Source of the DNA: a virus
Lineage: Duplodnaviria; Caudoviricetes
Direction: 5' to 3' (one strand)
IMG/VR virus record: IMGVR_UViG_3300038976_000013
Location: 1 to 39,327 of that record
Length of the DNA stretch: 39,327 nucleotides
Part shown: piece after piece, positions 155 to 39,327 of the stretch
How positions within the stretch are numbered: position 1 is the first letter of the stretch
Layout: each line of letters begins with the position of its first letter
Program-made: the position numbers and the translations under genes
Notes under the pieces: model-generated
The model's database searches: none
What the model was told of the DNA's origin: nothing
The model's input: the letters and a program-made list of their open reading frames with translations, nothing else

Positions 155-513
155 GTCGCCCGCTCGCTCGATCCACCCGGCACGGTGAAGGCCGGCGGTT
201 CTGCGTAGAGCATGCCGGAACTCAGGCGGCTCACGTCGCGCGCCGCAGGGATGTGCAGCCTGGTCGTGCCTTGTCCAGGAGTCGGGGTCCGGCCATGCCA
301 GAACGTGTTCAGCAACCGCTTGGCCCCCGGCCAACGGGCGGTACCGGTGTCGCTGCCGAAGTACTGGGCACTGACCGGGTCGCTCTGGGCACCGTAGACG
401 TAGGCCAGTTGCTCCATGTCGCCGCGGTACCAGGCGCCCCACTCCTGGTAGTACTTGGCCGGTCCTTCGCACTCGGCGGGTGGCCAAACGACATTGCCGT
501 ATTCGATCGGCAC
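1..513 (-). CDS. Portal protein, 5' part (continues across the join to 38049; 545 aa in total)
   Basis: GTG at 513 after a GGGGAG RBS. MPIEYGNVVWPP...EWGAWYRGD...RLHIPAARDVSRLSSGMLYAEPP is a typical actinophage portal N-terminus. In frame with the 38049-39275 ORF. Confidence 0.88.
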   Translation of the reverse strand, partial: MPIEYGNVVWPPAECEGPAKYYQEWGAWYRGDMEQLAYVYGAQSDPVSAQYFGSDTGTARWPGAKRLLNTFWHGRTPTPGQGTTRLHIPAARDVSRLSSGMLYAEPPAFTVPGGSSERATADGVILDNPAQDRLEQILSDSGAYSVFREQAEQGSAYGGMYLRAGVDVELA

Positions 514-11150: not shown

Positions 11151-12008
11151 ATGCATGGCGAAACCGAGCGACCCACCGAAAACCCCGAAACCGGGCAGCA
11201 AGCAGCCGGTACCGATCAAGCCTGCCAATCCAGCACCCCGACCGAAACCACCGGTCAAGCCAAAGTAGCGCTCCCGGCTACCCCGTTCCGAATGTTCACC
11301 TTCGGCACGGACCACCTGGAGCAACATGGACTCCGGCGCGACGCGTGCGTGATCTTCGAAGGTGAGGGGGACCTGCCCCGCGCCCGGATGCACCAGCGAT
11401 TCGGCAGAGATTGGGCCGCAGAGTACCTCCCGGATGCAGCGCGCAAGCAGATCGAATGGTGGAGCTACGTCCCGCTCACGCCGGCCGAACTGCCGCCGGT
11501 CCGGACGGACCTCCCGCCGGAGGTCGATCTCTGGATCCAGGAAGTGCTGATCGCACACGGTGAGCCGATCTTCGCCCGGGGCACCCCGTACGAACCACCG
11601 GACAGCACCGAGTACATGATGAAGCGGCCCGACGTCACTTACCGGGTGAATCACCTCGGCCAGACGTTCCGGGACGACGGTTCCCGGGTGTGGCCGGCCG
11701 ACTCCGATTTCCGGACGGCCATGGCCAGCGTGCATCTGTCCGGCTGCGTGCTGTCGTGGGACCACATCGGGAAATGCGCCCGGGGACCGGCGAATCACAC
11801 CCCGGAAGTGCGGGCCGACCTGACCGAGCGGAGAAAGGTCAGCAAGAGTGTCCAGCGGGGTGAGGACGCTGCTCGCACGCTGTACGTGCGTGGCGGTGCG
11901 GTCCCGCAGATGGACACGCTGGTCTACCCCGGGGAAAAGCCCGCCGAGGTCCGTGCGGCGCTTCGGGCGTACGCATGGTGGCTGCTCGATCTGGCCGACC
12001 GTGCGTAG
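11151..12008 (+). CDS. Hypothetical protein (285 aa)
   Basis: Long ORF, first gene of the rightward block; FTFG..H...AR.RM..RFG.DWA.EY phage-type motif. Confidence 0.8.
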   Translation: MHGETERPTENPETGQQAAGTDQACQSSTPTETTGQAKVALPATPFRMFTFGTDHLEQHGLRRDACVIFEGEGDLPRARMHQRFGRDWAAEYLPDAARKQIEWWSYVPLTPAELPPVRTDLPPEVDLWIQEVLIAHGEPIFARGTPYEPPDSTEYMMKRPDVTYRVNHLGQTFRDDGSRVWPADSDFRTAMASVHLSGCVLSWDHIGKCARGPANHTPEVRADLTERRKVSKSVQRGEDAARTLYVRGGAVPQMDTLVYPGEKPAEVRAALRAYAWWLLDLADRA

Positions 12009-18875: not shown

Positions 18876-18953
18876 GATCCCGTAGCTCAACTGGCAGAGC
18901 GGCCACCCGGGTTCAGCACCGGTCAGATGCAGGTTCGAATCCTGCCGGGGTCA
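18876..18953 (+). tRNA. tRNA-like element 4 (pseudo-tRNA; enlarged anticodon arm containing U-UCA)
   Basis: Acceptor GATCCCG/CGGGGTC, TA, D arm GCTC-AACTGGCA-GAGC, T arm GCAGG-TTCGAAT-CCTGC; 28 nt between D and T stems versus the canonical 22-23. Confidence 0.75.
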
Positions 18954-19124: not shown

Positions 19125-19190
19125 GACCCCGTAGCTCAACGGAACGAGCCCGCGACGGCGGAGATGCAGGTTCGAATCCTGCCGGGGTCA
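19125..19190 (+). tRNA. tRNA-like element 5 (anticodon arm cut to a 4-bp stem and tetraloop)
   Basis: Acceptor GACCCCG/CGGGGTC, D arm GCTC-AACGGAAC-GAGC, CCGC-GACG-GCGG, AGAT; the 31 nt at 19162-19192 are identical to 18925-18955. Confidence 0.75.
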
Positions 19191-21776: not shown

Positions 21777-22696
21777 GTCGCGTCGTCAGCCGTTTCGAAC
21801 GCGACCCCCGCCGCGGCCAGAGCGGCGGCCAGCTTGTTCTCCCGGGCGAGCGCCTGCGCGTGCGCCAGTTGGAGCGCGTCGAGATCGGATTGCAGCGCCG
21901 TGATCGCGGCGGACTCACCGGCGGCCACTTCGTTGATCCGGGCGATGATCGCGCCCGACTCGACATCCCCGCCCCCGGCGGCCACCGTGGCGGCCAGTGC
22001 GTCGACTTTGGCGGTCAGTGCGGCGATGGCCGCTTCGGTCCGCTTGGCCCGGCGGACCTGTGCCATCGGGGATTTGCTGCCGTCGTTCGCCCAGAAATCG
22101 AAGTCGTACATCACACTGTTGGTGCCGATAGCGGCCATGTTGATGTTGTACTCGTCAAGAGCCACAAGACCCTCCCCTAACAGGACGGCACGGACACCGT
22201 CGTGGTTGTTGAGCGCACGTGCACGGTAGAACGACATGTGACAGTGCCACAAATGCGACGAATCAAACGGCGATCGCGCCGCACCGTCCGAGCACCGGAA
22301 CGTGACGACGTTGTTGCCGTCCAGCGTGCCGGCGAACTCGAACACGTTCGCCAGGCGGGGATCCCGGGCCAGTGCGGCATTGCGCATCCGGGTGGTGAGC
22401 TCGATCATCCGAGCGGTATTGCCCGGCGTGAAATCCAGCGCACAGACGGCGTTCCGGTCGGCCGAGACGTTCAGCGACCCCGCCAGGGAGTAATCCTGGT
22501 CGTGGTCCCGGCTGTCCGGGCTGTTCCGGATCCAGTTCTCCGAGCGGTGAAACCCGGAGTTGTGAACGTTGTTGCCCTTGATTCCGACGCTGTCCGCCGA
22601 CGTGCCGTAATGCGACCGGAGCGCCTGCCCCACCGCGCTGATCGTGCCCGGACTCCACTCGGCCAGAATCCGAGGGTCGTTCATGTTGATGACCAT
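21773..22696 (-). CDS. Endolysin, probable Zn-peptidase (M15/LAS-like) with C-terminal coiled coil (307 aa)
   Basis: GGGAGG RBS; H..GFH, DYS, ALD, DPRL and DSSHLWHCHMSF motifs; sits between tail genes and holins. Confidence 0.78.
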   Translation of the reverse strand: MVINMNDPRILAEWSPGTISAVGQALRSHYGTSADSVGIKGNNVHNSGFHRSENWIRNSPDSRDHDQDYSLAGSLNVSADRNAVCALDFTPGNTARMIELTTRMRNAALARDPRLANVFEFAGTLDGNNVVTFRCSDGAARSPFDSSHLWHCHMSFYRARALNNHDGVRAVLLGEGLVALDEYNINMAAIGTNSVMYDFDFWANDGSKSPMAQVRRAKRTEAAIAALTAKVDALAATVAAGGGDVESGAIIARINEVAAGESAAITALQSDLDALQLAHAQALARENKLAAALAAAGVAFETADDAT

Positions 22697-28695: not shown

Positions 28696-29466
28696 TTAGA
28701 CGTACACCACGGCGTTGGTGGCACCGGTCGCGCTGGTGCCGGTCGTGTTCGTCACCGTGACGTTGTACGGGCCTGCCGCCTTGGCGGGGTACCGCGCGAC
28801 GATCCGGTAGCGGCTTTCCACGACCCACTCCAGGGCGTTGGTACCGGTCACCTTGACACCGGTGACAGCCGTGACGACGTTGTTGCCGTTGGCGTCCATG
28901 AAGTTGTCGCCGATGATGACGATCAGTCCGCCACCGGCAGCGAGCAGGCCAGCCGATGGCGTGACCGAGTTGACCACCGGGAGCGGGAGCGCCGCGGCGA
29001 CCGGGTTCGTGATGATGAGTCGGTCCGACTTGCCAGTGACCGTGACCGTGATGGTCTCCAGGTCCGTCTGACTTCCGCCGTCCGGTTCCCAGGAGACCTC
29101 ACCGAAACCGGAGAACGCCTCGATCCCGCCGTTCCGGTCGTACCACCGGATGTTGGCCACACCGGACGCGCCGAACGTGTAGCTCAGCGTGCGCAGCTTT
29201 TCCTGACCGGGGTCGTACGTGATCGCACTGGCCGCGTCGGTCCGGCGCACCAACTTGAACTCCAGCGACCAGGACAGCGCTGTCTTGGTCTGCCCTGTCC
29301 AGCCGCCGGCCTCATAGACGTTGTCGTCTTCCAGGTTCGGCGCGTTTGGAGACGGGGTGAGCTCCTGGATCCCGTAGATCGGAGTCCAGATCGGCACCGC
29401 CACGGTGCCCGTATTGATGTCAGCCTGCCACTTCCTGGCCAAAGTTGACTGTTGCGGTTGAGTCAC
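28696..29466 (-). CDS. Major tail (tube) protein with C-terminal IPT/TIG Ig-like domain
   Basis: LARKW..DIN, DPGQE.LR and IRWYDRNG motifs; C-terminal PVVNSVTPS...AAGG.LIVI.G.NF...VTVTN. Confidence 0.9.
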   Translation of the reverse strand: MTQPQQSTLARKWQADINTGTVAVPIWTPIYGIQELTPSPNAPNLEDDNVYEAGGWTGQTKTALSWSLEFKLVRRTDAASAITYDPGQEKLRTLSYTFGASGVANIRWYDRNGGIEAFSGFGEVSWEPDGGSQTDLETITVTVTGKSDRLIITNPVAAALPLPVVNSVTPSAGLLAAGGGLIVIIGDNFMDANGNNVVTAVTGVKVTGTNALEWVVESRYRIVARYPAKAAGPYNVTVTNTTGTSATGATNAVVYV

Positions 29467-35829: not shown

Positions 35830-36510
35830 TTACATCAGGTGCTTGAGCTTGCCAGCCTTGAGCGCCGCATCGATCTCATCGGGCGTCATGGCTTTCAGTT
35901 GCTCCATTGTGATCTTGTCGGTTGGCGCCCCGCTCGCCATCCCTGGCGAGTTGGCGCCGCCCGCAGCGGGGGAGGGCGGGGTCGGTGCCGCGTTCAGGGC
36001 GAGACGCGGGTTGGCAGCCATCTCGGAGGTCACCAGCGCTTGCACCTGAGCGGCGAAGTCGGGGGCGGTGGGGTCGAGTCCGGAAAGCTTGCCGTTGTAC
36101 GTCAGTACCGCGGTCATCAGGTCACCGTCGGCACCAGCCTTGTACGCCGCACCAAGCAGGGCGTTTTGGATCTGGAGCTGTCGGTTCTGCTGACCGGTTT
36201 GGGTCAATTGCTGCGTGAGCTGAGCGGGGTCAGTCGGCGCGTCATTCTGACCAAGGGCTTTGGCCAGCGTCGTCAACAGATCTTTTTTTGCCTGCTCAGC
36301 AGCATTGTCCCGCGCCTGAGTCCGTGCCTTGTGGTTCGCGTCGGCAATCTGCTGGTCCAGGTACGCCCGCGCCGCAGGGTCCAGGGTGGCAGGGTTGAAC
36401 GGAACCGGCGCCGGAACCGGAGCGGGTGGGGTCGGCACCGGAGCAGGCGGGATCCCGCCGGGATCGGCCGGCGCTGGTGCCGGATCAGTGTTCGGGAGCG
36501 GCTGTCCCAT
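35830..36510 (-). CDS. Scaffolding protein (226 aa)
   Basis: GGAGG RBS; Pro-rich ends with a helical core; immediately upstream of the major capsid gene. Confidence 0.82.
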   Translation of the reverse strand: MGQPLPNTDPAPAPADPGGIPPAPVPTPPAPVPAPVPFNPATLDPAARAYLDQQIADANHKARTQARDNAAEQAKKDLLTTLAKALGQNDAPTDPAQLTQQLTQTGQQNRQLQIQNALLGAAYKAGADGDLMTAVLTYNGKLSGLDPTAPDFAAQVQALVTSEMAANPRLALNAAPTPPSPAAGGANSPGMASGAPTDKITMEQLKAMTPDEIDAALKAGKLKHLM

Positions 36511-36593
36511 GCGTTCCTCCGGAACGTAGGAAAGGGGCGGCATCCACCGGATACCGCTGATCATCAGGATACAGCGTAGGGCCAGGACAGCGT

Positions 36594-37814
36594 TTATCGC
36601 TTCAGCCCGAGGTCGATCCGCTCACGCTCCGGCTTGCGTTTCAGGTCAGGGCTGGACGCGACATGCGCCTTGATCTCGGCATTGACAGCCTTGATCCGGT
36701 CCTTCAGCGCCGGCGGGGTCTTCCCGTCCGTAAACGGCTTGGTCGCCGCTTCCTGACGCAAGAGCTCGCGCTTCCGGCGCTCCAGCGCGCGTAGCCGGTC
36801 CCGCGCGCGCGCGCCTTCGGGGTCTGCTGTGTGCGTCGGAGCTACGGTCAGCCCCGGCAAGTACGCGCTCAGCGAATGCCGGCAATTCGGGTGGAGCAGG
36901 CCGGCGCCGACCGCTTCATCGACGCTTCCGGCAATCTCGATCCTCACAGTCTCGTCATCGATCTCGGATTCACGCTCGATCGTGCGTTTCCCCGCCGGCC
37001 CACCACGGGCTAGAACCTTGCCCTCCCACGGTCGGCATTTTGCACATTCCATCGCCGCATTGCTGACAATGACCAGGTCTATCTGCGCGTCGGCCAAGCG
37101 GTCCATGTGTCCTTCGACCGCAGCCTGTGCGGTTGCCGTCCGGCCGGCCATCTCGACGTAACCGGCTAGGGTCCAACCCCGCCCCGCCTGATCGACAAAA
37201 CCGGTGATGCCCTGGCGGGTGAACGCGGTAAACGCGCGCTGAGCAGCCTCTCGGCGTGTTTGAGACCCCGCCAGGACGCTCGGCACTGCAGTACGCGCGA
37301 CCGTCTGCCGGTAGATGTCGTCCACCGCACGCAGGATCGGCGTGTGCATCCCTCCCAGCTTGGTCACGGTCGTGTTGATCAGCCGGTTCAGCGAACCAGC
37401 TCCGGGCATGTCGGTCTCGATCCGGCGCGCTATCTCCGCTAAATTGCCGATCCGTTTATCGATCATCTCGGTGAGCCGTGGTCCGGGACGGATGTCAGCG
37501 AGTCGAATCCAGTCGGCATGGGTGCTCTGGACCTTGGTCAGCTCACGCAATGCCTCACTTCCGCCGGCGGCGTACGCCTGGACCAGTGATCGCGCGACCT
37601 GCTCCTGAGCGGGACCGGTCACCCGAGTGAGCGCACGCTCGGCGAGACGCCGCACATCCCCCATCGCAGCAAGTTTTTTGGCCTGCCAATCCGGTGTGCC
37701 AATCCCGCGGGCCAGTTGCCGGCCGATTTGCTCGATCAGGTCCCGCTCAAGCTGTGCGTACGTCTCGCCGAGCTCCGACACGAGAAACGCCGCAGTATTC
37801 CGATCAACCGGCAC
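36594..37814 (-). CDS. Phage minor capsid protein (minor capsid 2 / MuF-like)
   Basis: GITGFVD.AGR.W.L..YVEMA.RT, C..CRPWEGKVL and GLLHPNCRHSL.AY.PG motifs. Confidence 0.9.
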   Translation of the reverse strand: MPVDRNTAAFLVSELGETYAQLERDLIEQIGRQLARGIGTPDWQAKKLAAMGDVRRLAERALTRVTGPAQEQVARSLVQAYAAGGSEALRELTKVQSTHADWIRLADIRPGPRLTEMIDKRIGNLAEIARRIETDMPGAGSLNRLINTTVTKLGGMHTPILRAVDDIYRQTVARTAVPSVLAGSQTRREAAQRAFTAFTRQGITGFVDQAGRGWTLAGYVEMAGRTATAQAAVEGHMDRLADAQIDLVIVSNAAMECAKCRPWEGKVLARGGPAGKRTIERESEIDDETVRIEIAGSVDEAVGAGLLHPNCRHSLSAYLPGLTVAPTHTADPEGARARDRLRALERRKRELLRQEAATKPFTDGKTPPALKDRIKAVNAEIKAHVASSPDLKRKPERERIDLGLKR

Positions 37815-37827
37815 GGCGTTCTCTTCT

Positions 37828-37878
37828 CTACTTCGGTCGTGGTCGTGGCATCGGTCGGGGGCAGGGATTCCCGATCAT
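37828..37878 (-). CDS. Pro/Arg-rich micro-ORF 3 (16 aa)
   Basis: MIGNPCPRPMPRPRPK; ATGA overlap with micro-ORF 2; ends 13 nt before the minor capsid start. Confidence 0.5.
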   Translation of the reverse strand: MIGNPCPRPMPRPRPK

Positions 37879-37958
37879 CGTGTCGGGCGGGGCGGGGCGG
37901 GGTTACCGCCTGGTCGGGGTTTCGGTTGGGGCTTGGGTTCAGGCGTCGTGATCTTCAT
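37875..37958 (-). CDS. Pro/Arg-rich micro-ORF 2 (27 aa)
   Basis: MKITTPEPKPQPKPRPGGNPAPPRPTR; ATGA overlaps at both ends. Confidence 0.55.
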   Translation of the reverse strand: MKITTPEPKPQPKPRPGGNPAPPRPTR

Positions 37959-38059
37959 CGTTTCCCTGGTACTGGTAGGTCTTTGGGCTCACGTGGTGGC
38001 AGATTCGGCGGTTCCGGTCGGGGTGGTCGTGGGGGAACCGGGGGCGGGTTACTCGGCAT
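37955..38059 (-). CDS. Pro-rich micro-ORF 1 (34 aa)
   Basis: MPSNPPPVPPRPPRPEPPNLPPREPKDLPVPGKR; overlaps the portal end by 11 nt. Confidence 0.55.
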   Translation of the reverse strand: MPSNPPPVPPRPPRPEPPNLPPREPKDLPVPGKR

Positions 38060-39327
38060 TCTGAGGATCGTATCCGGGGACACTGTCATCAGGTGGCCCG
38101 AACGGATCGCCGGCGGGATTGGCACCGAACGTCGTGGGATCCTCCACCGGAGCACCCTCGATCCGGAGCACCTCAGCATCCACATCCTGATCAAGCCAAT
38201 CCGGATGCAGCATCTCGACCTTGGTCTGAGTGCTGACTGCTTTCGCCGCGTCGAGCAACTGGAGCGTGCGCGCCTGACTTTCCGGGTCTACAGCAGCCGC
38301 GTCCTGCCACTCGATCGTTGCCGGCATCGGGGTGTACTTCCCTCCCAAGTGCGCAACGTCGAGTTCCTGCAGGATGAACGCCAGCTTGCGCAGACCCGGT
38401 TCCTGATAGCCCTGCTTTTCCAGCCGCGTCGCTGTCGAGCGCTCCCCGGCTTTACCAACCTCTTTCGCTGTCCGGTCGCCTCCACCCTCTTGCTCCCCGA
38501 ACGCGTCCCGACTCAGGCCGGCGGCCTGAGCGATCGTCCGCCAGCAGGCGGTCGCGGTGCGCTCGTGCTCTTCCACCCGGATCGCGAACTGGACCTGCTC
38601 CAGTTGCATCCCCTGGTCTTTCCCGCCCATCATCTCGATCCCGGTAAACACTTCCTGCTCCAGATCGAAATTCGCGCCGCGTCCAGCCCCGCCTGACTGC
38701 AGGTACGCGCGCGGCACGACCAGCCTGCCCTTGGCCAACCGAATGTCCCGCATCCAGGACGACCAGGTCTCGTCCAGCGCGTCCATCGCCGATGTCGCAC
38801 CGAAGTAGTCGGAACAGCCCAGCGCCGTCCCGCGGAGCATCGGGTGTGGCCGGAGATTGGGCTGGTACACCACGTCCAGCACGGTGCACCCGGTAGCGAT
38901 CCGGTTGTTACCGTCGACCAGCGTAGCCACGTGCTGACACTGGTCGTCACCGTCCTCCAGCGGCACCTTTTCGCCCAACCGGTCAGCTCCTCCGAGGTAC
39001 AGCGCGTGCTCGATGTACCCGACCTTGCCGGCAACCTCGTGCAGCTCCAGATGACGCCAGATCTTCGAACCGTCCCGGTAGACCTCTCGCCAGAACGTCA
39101 CGGCAACGAGAATCCCCCGACGCCAGACCGGGATCGCGTTGTCCGGGATCAGCGCATCGGTGATCGGGTAGTCGGCGAGCTCCACATCGACCCCGGCACG
39201 CAGGTACATCCCGCCGTAGGCGCTTCCCTGCTCTGCCTGCTCCCGGAACACGGAGTATGCGCCGGAATCGCTCAAGATCTGCTCCAGCCGATCCTGCGCC
39301 GGATTGTCCAGGATGACCCCGTCCGCC
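38049..39327 (-). CDS. Portal protein, 3' part
   Basis: GG.YLR, WRHLE.HE..G.IEHALY.G, Y.PN, LG.SDY, LDETWSSWMRDIRL.K.R..VP and QFAIRVEEH motifs; continues from 1-513. Confidence 0.92.
   Translation of the reverse strand, partial: ADGVILDNPAQDRLEQILSDSGAYSVFREQAEQGSAYGGMYLRAGVDVELADYPITDALIPDNAIPVWRRGILVAVTFWREVYRDGSKIWRHLELHEVAGKVGYIEHALYLGGADRLGEKVPLEDGDDQCQHVATLVDGNNRIATGCTVLDVVYQPNLRPHPMLRGTALGCSDYFGATSAMDALDETWSSWMRDIRLAKGRLVVPRAYLQSGGAGRGANFDLEQEVFTGIEMMGGKDQGMQLEQVQFAIRVEEHERTATACWRTIAQAAGLSRDAFGEQEGGGDRTAKEVGKAGERSTATRLEKQGYQEPGLRKLAFILQELDVAHLGGKYTPMPATIEWQDAAAVDPESQARTLQLLDAAKAVSTQTKVEMLHPDWLDQDVDAEVLRIEGAPVEDPTTFGANPAGDPFGPPDDSVPGYDPQNAE
39174..39327. repeat. Terminal direct repeat (circular assembly overlap), copy 2
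   Basis: Matches 1-154 with one mismatch. Confidence 0.97.

Follow-up and report, generated by a model that had tools for sequence, protein, structure and literature searches.

A chain of proline-rich short open reading frames at the portal/minor head junction of an actinophage-like genome and its reading as a candidate family of accessory phage microproteins

Introduction

Short proline-rich peptides with an intracellular target are represented by the PrAMPs, for which a proline content of at least 25% and a net charge of at least +1 have been given as criteria, with a PRP motif indicative but not essential, and for which antimicrobial activity and an intracellular target, either DnaK or the 70S ribosome, are stated as essential (PMC7736402, with the compositional criteria in its Box 1). 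Type I PrAMPs such as oncocin, Bac7 and pyrrhocoricin are described by the consensus (R/K)XX(R/Y)LPRPR (PMC11484942), with PRPxP as the core of type Ia (PMC12056610), and in the type II group, to which apidaecin and drosocin belong, the penultimate arginine contacts the release factor and the C-terminal segment is intolerant of change (PMC13233979; PMC11347161). Equally, Bac5 and the rumicidins have been reported to act without the type I consensus (PMC12056610; PMC11484942), the orientation of PrAMPs can flip through single changes (PMC13233979; PMC12056610; PMC11484942), and arginine- and proline-rich sequences have been attributed a general propensity for the ribosomal exit tunnel, with a mode of action that is hard to predict from the sequence (PMC13233979).

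Leader peptides acting in cis, for which MgtL can serve as a precedent (PMC12856214), form a second point of comparison. A third is provided by the tight packing of prokaryotic genes, where -4 and -1 are the commonest gene-to-gene distances, overlaps of -4 lead to tight coupling and the subunits of complexes are enriched for short overlaps (PMC10666635). A literature search, with most subscription papers outside its scope, found nothing on phage-encoded proline-rich or tunnel-binding small peptides. The initial annotation of the phage genome considered here had described three overlapping proline-rich micropeptides between the portal and minor head protein genes, and had read them as PrAMP-like effectors or as a stalling relay that sets head-gene stoichiometry in cis.

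Genome setting

The window, i.e. the whole analysed stretch of 39,327 nucleotides, is a circular, actinophage-like phage contig of 39 kb with a 154-nt terminal repeat. The peptide chain is flanked by the 3' part of the portal protein gene (38049..39327, minus strand; phrog_533, E 3.6e-76), which runs on across the contig ends, and by the gene of a minor head or head morphogenesis protein (36594..37814, minus strand; phrog_12049 and phrog_581), which has a GTG start and a weak Shine-Dalgarno (SD) sequence (-2.9). Major capsid, tail, polymerase, primase and terminase genes are also assigned in the window by PHROGs. The nearest cultured relatives of the portal protein are Streptomyces phages (approximately 44%) and those of the polymerase are Nocardia and Gordonia phages (approximately 42%), so that the host is likely to be an actinomycete. 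The public sequencing run that matches the window best is a soil metagenome, which probably represents the source sample; no RNA dataset was listed among the runs that contain the sequence.

Additional sequence elements were observed elsewhere in the genome. A 22-nt motif occurs in three copies (82-100%; window 257-278, 1048-1069 and 2192-2213), possibly operator or promoter sites, between terminase and portal, in an interval that also carries four small inserted ORFs without a confident Pfam match. A 20-nt exact repeat (window 22301-22320 and 28870-28889) is common to two tail-region genes, and a contig of run X1 shows two 3-nt deletions inside the minor head gene (window 37310 and 37316). 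Two tRNA-like elements (window 18876-18953 and 19125-19190, plus strand; Rfam tRNA scores of 46.8 and 45.0 bits) have an identical 31-nt 3' part and differing, aberrant anticodon arms; ARAGORN assigned a four-base anticodon to the first and did not call the second. These elements, which had been associated with the peptides as a possible strategy of translation manipulation, sit approximately 19 kb from the chain.

Layout of the chain

Three ORFs on the minus strand occupy the space between the portal and the minor head gene: p1, a 34-aa proline-rich microprotein (37955..38059; 46-47% Pro, net charge +3), p2, a 27-aa K/R/Pro-rich ORF (37875..37958; 36-37% Pro, net +5), and p3, an ORF of 16 aa (37828..37878; 35-38% Pro, net +4). 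The ATG of p1 lies inside the portal 3' end in the +1 frame with an 11-nt overlap with the portal stop, ATGA stop/start overlaps read directly from the window sequence join p1 to p2 (37955..37958, minus strand) and p2 to p3 (37875..37878, minus strand), and the p3 stop is located 13 nt before the minor head GTG. The three ORFs, the peptide sequences quoted for them, their separate frames and the two CGATGA junctions are thus all present as initially described. The identity of the two junctions is, however, nothing special, as 4-nt overlaps are found at 17 of 40 adjacent same-strand gene pairs in a crude gene map of the window and the CGATGA ending occurs also in two other called genes. The SD sequences of the chain are weak or absent overall (-3.3 kcal/mol for p1, -4.9 for p2 and +0.4 for p3, which amounts to none), and no promoter- or terminator-like site was seen in 36400-38400.

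The reservation that C-rich DNA would give proline in any frame is refuted by three lines of evidence. Proline is frame-specific, with 46/12/15% in the three frames over p1, 36/22/22% over p2 and 35/12/12% over p3. When the 232-nt stretch was shuffled 20,000 times with its dinucleotides preserved, three ATGA-linked ORFs with at least 30% proline never arose; 34 shuffles gave a two-ORF chain and 19 a three-ORF chain of any composition. The third line is the substitution pattern of p1 set out below, and with it a compositional artefact was rejected. Furthermore, no chain of at least two proline-rich ATGA-linked ORFs was found in 283 related loci (1.86 Mb, redundant).

p1 as a protein-coding gene

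A second strain is represented in the soil run by one contig of 165 nt (depth 3.7) over 37914-38078 with 18 differences to the window. The terminal 31 nt on either side of this contig match the window by construction, and its informative span therefore does not reach the p1 ATG. Fourteen of the differences fall inside p1, 13 of them at third codon positions, changing 12 codons synonymously and one from Val to Ala, which corresponds to approximately 13 changes per 26.7 synonymous sites versus 1 per 63.3 non-synonymous sites. The bias has a binomial p of 6e-6 and was reached in 0 of 100,000 permutations matched for base composition. As a control, 9 of 10 and 14 of 15 changed codons were synonymous in two bubbles of the portal gene. 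In its own frame, p1 is consequently under purifying selection. At Asn, Arg, Glu and two Lys codons the changes are synonymous throughout, suggesting that residue identity beyond the mere proline count matters in p1. Alternative frames were rejected: four of the five others over p1 would have 0-1 synonymous versus 13 non-synonymous codons, and the antisense frame with third positions in common belongs to ORF 37716-38696, whose changes in the portal bubbles are non-synonymous in 10 of 10 and 14 of 15 cases. The p1/p2 ATGA overlap is unchanged in the second strain, with differences at the neighbouring sites 37961 and 37954.

The closest relative among the loci sampled, L007 (portal 73%, minor head 64% identity), encodes a p1 homologue (L007:2114-2251), a 45-aa ORF that is 61% identical to p1 and equally has its ATG in the +1 frame to the portal gene. 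A profile of p1 and the L007 ORF retrieved two hits from 1.84 billion proteins, P0121 and P0122. The former, a repetitive ORF without the p1 motif, was dropped; the latter carries the p1 core in residues 27-57 and has a second motif in common with L007. None of 3,000 composition-matched shuffles reached the similarity of L007 or of P0122 to p1 (p=0.0003, the lowest value this test can give), and both retain the pattern P..P..P.LPP.EP..LP.PG.

In this alignment of three rows (p1, the L007 ORF and P0122) the core is internal and the C-terminus is the most variable part, with p1 ending at once after the core, L007 10 residues and P0122 85 residues later. The L007 ORF and P0122 27-57 have a net charge of -1 each, and the PRP motifs of p1 are not aligned with PRP there. 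What the family keeps is a neutral Pro/Leu/Glu core, and neither charge, PRP nor C-terminus. P0122 is not fused to a portal protein; it is a singleton without family match on a 1,356-nt contig, and the approximately 85 residues following the p1 motif include a hydrophobic stretch near the end.

Other searches gave no homologue. PHROGs had no match for p1 and p2, Pfam none for p1, p2, p4 (see below), the L007 ORF and P0122, the PDB none for the peptides tested and the ESM Atlas none for P0122 and p1. The exact sequences of p1, p2, p4 and the L007 ORF are absent from approximately 15 billion collected proteins. Word searches with the L007 peptide and, among shorter proteins, with P0122 were equally without result, as were blastn and tblastn against INPHARED phages with the low-complexity filter on. 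In IMG/VR, a degenerate DNA pattern recovered the L007 contig only and P0122 matched one unrelated tail gene. Two apparently much overlapping samples of 401 GTDB genomes gave 6 and 2 weak hits, which were judged by a quick frame check, with L301 looked at more closely, and included no evident homologue. On the pattern of substitutions and the homologues found, p1 is with high confidence considered a real gene.

p2, p3 and the look-alike p4

A fourth peptide that was absent from the initial annotation, p4, is a 37-aa K/Pro-rich look-alike (11155..11268, plus strand; 38% Pro, net charge +8) with an SD sequence of -8.0 kcal/mol. It is the first ORF of the rightward gene run, next to an excisionase-like HTH_17 gene (11040-10657) transcribed divergently, and its location is remote from the head genes and outside the structural region. 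The short ATG ORFs of the genome with at least 27% proline, 4 of 312, are p1-p4. Proline-rich ATG ORFs number 79 among 12,997 in related loci, a background from which approximately 2 are expected among the 312 of the window, so that p4 on its own could be due to chance. No p4-like ORF was found upstream in three polymerase relatives, and the gene following p4 had no relative in IMG/VR.

The motif (G/S/A)NPxP is present in all of p1-p4, which hold 4 of its 7 copies in the six genome frames, and joint shuffles with the motif in all four peptides numbered 0 of 200,000, for a motif picked post hoc. p3 and p4 have the ending xPK in common besides this motif. The p2-p3, p3-p4 and p4-L007 alignments beat shuffles (p about 0.003-0.004, uncorrected, with 15 pairs tested). 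The similarities of p1 to p2, p3 and p4 do not rise above composition-matched shuffles (p 0.68, 0.27 and 0.23), nor does p2-p4 (0.30), and a single p1-p4 family consequently rests on the post hoc motif. The second-strain contig takes in the start of p2 and leaves out p3, the p2/p3 junction and p4; its four differences in p2 are confined to codons 2-5 and comprise the conservative changes K2R and I3V and one synonymous codon. The read depth beyond 37914 (10.7, with about 54% of the run read) is that of the main strain alone, so that the second strain is traced as far as 37914 in p2.

It is therefore conceivable that only p1 is functional, the other two ORFs of the chain, and perhaps p4 as well, being of recent origin, specific to the strain or in decay and serving just to pass ribosomes on from p1 to the minor head gene. 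No homologue of p2-p4 was found in related loci or in phage and protein collections (p3 being too short for family and look-up searches), two of the three changed p2 codons are non-synonymous, the depth beyond 37914 is accounted for by the main strain, and the codon usage discussed below is atypical. On the other hand, the p2 changes are conservative and the p1/p2 junction is kept, shuffling fails to reproduce the chain, and p2-p3 and p3-p4 are alike beyond composition, and a function of p1 only is regarded as rather improbable. p2-p4 are seen as probable genes, less firmly supported than p1.

The portal/minor head junction in relatives

A portal end was present in 215 loci, 158 of them distinct, and the gap to the minor head gene was measurable in 86 relatives, with 46 gaps of at most 30 nt, 4 of 31-150 nt and 36 of more than 150 nt. 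The long gaps hold unrelated genes, among those listed, and since they occur in 36 of 86 relatives, the junction is marked as a position for accessory genes; in L008 (1956-3600) an extended series of short, GC-rich units repeated in tandem occupies the beginning of the gap. L007 alone among the 158 distinct relatives has a p1 homologue at this junction, with sampling near the window phage thin and only L007 closer than 60%. Its junction contains a single ORF that overlaps the portal gene by 53 nt, without an ATGA chain, and its minor head gene has its own, stronger SD sequence (-6.4).

One consequence of this position would be a role in the virion, with p1-p3 as virion or procapsid accessory peptides that are co-translated with the portal protein and bind the portal, the minor head protein, the scaffold or DNA, similar to a split-off proline-rich portal tail. 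The location in the head module favours such a role. Both p1 and its L007 homologue begin in the +1 frame inside the portal 3' end, the last 25 residues have at least 20% proline in 52 of 120 portal homologues and a basic proline-rich tail ends 7 of the 120, the scaffold-position protein of the window has 13% proline, and the reported enrichment of short overlaps among complex subunits (PMC10666635) would fit as well. A structural function nevertheless appears unlikely in view of the restriction of the p1 homologue to one relative, the presence at this junction of two other proline-rich ORFs that are unrelated to p1, the gap of 6 nt in L171 (portal 54%, capsid 76%) and the location of p4. Equally, a fusion of portal and p1 by a programmed +1 frameshift is disfavoured, as no slippery sequence common to the window and L007 was seen by eye, both keep the ATG and the position of the portal stop differs between them.

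Conservation of the ATGA junctions, which had been proposed as a check, is seen for p1/p2 in one close strain and not in L007. A stalling relay for head stoichiometry finds no support, given the single ORF and own minor head SD of L007 and the 46 of 86 relatives without insert; such a relay is thus a feature neither of the clade nor of the nearest relative, and the conserved position and coupling expected of a cis-acting leader or arrest peptide are lacking.

In a wider sense, control in cis could be exerted by slow translation of proline-rich, CGA- and CCA-rich ORFs, which, as a relay or by sensing Pro-tRNA or EF-P in the manner of MgtL, would tune the downstream gene via coupling or via access of Rho to the C-rich transcript. 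The codon usage of p1-p4 is unlike that of the long genes of the phage (GC3 0.45-0.65 versus 0.74-0.87; negative codon scores). Arginine is encoded by CGA in 9 of 11 cases, whereas ten long genes use this codon in 39 of 352 (Fisher p 3e-7), an excess that persists without the two junction codons (Fisher p 1e-5), and CCA makes up 13 of 46 proline codons versus 20 of 280. The 8-mer CCCCGACC (Pro-Arg-Pro) has one copy in each of p1-p4, i.e. 4 of 8 genome copies; shared ancestry, weak expression or a signal at the nucleotide level may underlie its recurrence and the CGA bias. The 6 PP steps in p1, the leader position of p4, the weak SD of the minor head gene in the window and the MgtL precedent (PMC12856214) also speak for an action in cis. 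However, the second strain freely swaps such codons, including one CGA and two CCA, and L007 dispenses with the chain at a stronger minor head SD. Furthermore, PP steps are missing from p3, which adjoins the supposed target gene, mRNA folding is the same as in shuffles (z 0.05), 36400-38400 contains no terminator-like site, a RAPP/RAGP-type motif is absent from the peptides and actinobacterial EF-P has been reported to be active unmodified (PMC12856214). Taken together, cis control is considered quite improbable.

Interpretation and significance

The ORFs with their overlaps, the purifying selection on p1, the two p1 homologues and the look-alike p4 elsewhere in the genome are directly established. 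Proline-rich peptides tend to adopt a polyproline-II conformation, and peptides with 37-47% proline cannot fold into a globule and are usually extended ligands. The explanation that is tentatively preferred regards p1-p4 as accessory phage microproteins, predicted to be made by re-initiation in the case of the chain, which would act in trans as proline-rich ligands or decoys of a host protein. Ribosomes finishing the portal gene would start again at p1, then at p2 and then at p3 (overlaps of -11, -4 and -4), whereby peptides would be delivered in low, late doses, and p4 would be produced separately from its own SD. This scenario supposes that p2-p4 are translated and of one family with p1, that the peptides adopt a stiff polyproline-II conformation and that the partner in trans is a host rather than a phage protein. 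The non-proline residues that are kept, the free C-terminus, the varied contexts and the insertion-prone site together suggest an accessory effector in trans on a host protein. Equally, an internal core that is kept next to a variable C-terminus is expected of a binding motif and not of an arrest peptide acting at its stop codon, and, as p4 is encoded at a distance from the head genes and P0122 is free of any portal sequence fused to it, the motif would recur in other contexts. Against the preferred explanation counts that selection on p1 is read from the single 165-nt contig of depth 3.7 of what is probably the source sample, that two of three changed p2 codons are non-synonymous and that the codon usage is atypical.

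In the best reading, p1-p4 would constitute an undescribed family of very short proline-rich accessory phage microproteins, with a function inferred from sequence. Gene callers discard genes as short as 16-37 codons, and p1, with a clear selection signal and homologues, documents a hidden phage microprotein family. If a host defence or chaperone protein is bound, the peptides would be host-interaction factors of unusually small size for a phage; if the ribosome is hit, PrAMPs would have counterparts encoded by a virus, which might provide new antibiotic scaffolds for actinobacteria.

Comparison with known systems

The proposed resemblance to PrAMPs extends to composition and ends at the motifs. 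With 47, 37, 38 and 38% proline, net charges of +3, +5, +4 and +8 and 2, 2, 3 and 1 PRP copies, p1-p4 are within the compositional limits of the definition (PMC7736402, Box 1), and p1, p3 and p4, unlike p2, the L007 ORF and P0122 27-57, contain PRPxP, the type Ia core (PMC12056610), which in peptides this rich in proline is likely a matter of chance. The type I consensus is absent from p1-p4, the L007 ORF and P0122 27-57, the latter two having LPRP alone, and none of p1-p4 has an aromatic residue. Instead of the penultimate arginine of type II, K, T, P and P are found in p1-p4 and W in L007.

Entry of the peptides into the vacant ribosomal exit tunnel or binding to DnaK, by which host translation would be damped or redirected, is a further alternative. 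They might represent effectors convergent with insect and mammalian PrAMPs, with another pharmacophore, (G/S/A)NPxP..RP, delivered as a late chain and a single early copy. Composition, PRPxP and the tunnel propensity of Arg/Pro-rich sequences with their unpredictable mode (PMC13233979) are in line with this proposal, and a PrAMP-like way of working is conceivable by analogy, as Bac5 and the rumicidins work without the consensus (PMC12056610; PMC11484942) and the orientation can flip; the best candidates would be p3 and p4, which relative to length are the most basic of the peptides. Missing in four of four peptides, however, are the type I consensus and the penultimate arginine, and a ribosome blocker coupled to the portal gene would presumably appear when the phage most needs translation. 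As p1, the only member with homologues, has a family that keeps the neutral core and loses charge, PRP and C-terminus, p1-p4 are not classed as PrAMPs, and convergence on the ribosome or DnaK is regarded as very doubtful.

Compared with type I PrAMPs, p1-p4 are alike in length (16-37 aa), proline content, positive net charge and PRP, with PRPxP in three of them, and differ in the absence of the consensus and of aromatic residues, in being phage-encoded, cytoplasmic and provided with their own ATG, and in the failure of the p1 homologues to keep charge or PRP. With type II PrAMPs they have the composition and a C-terminal basic residue in common, whereas the penultimate arginine is absent and the C-terminus is the part where the p1 family varies most. 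Leader and arrest peptides such as MgtL and SecM are equally encoded by short proline-rich ORFs directly upstream of a gene and with odd codons, and p4 holds a leader position; in contrast to them, the arrangement is not kept in L007, no attenuator fold or terminator is seen and three ORFs form a chain inside an operon. Actinophage head-module accessory genes with 4-nt overlaps share the insert-prone junction (36 of 86) and the ATGA coupling (17 of 40), and from these p1-p4 are set apart by their extreme shortness, their proline content and the occurrence of four look-alikes in one genome.
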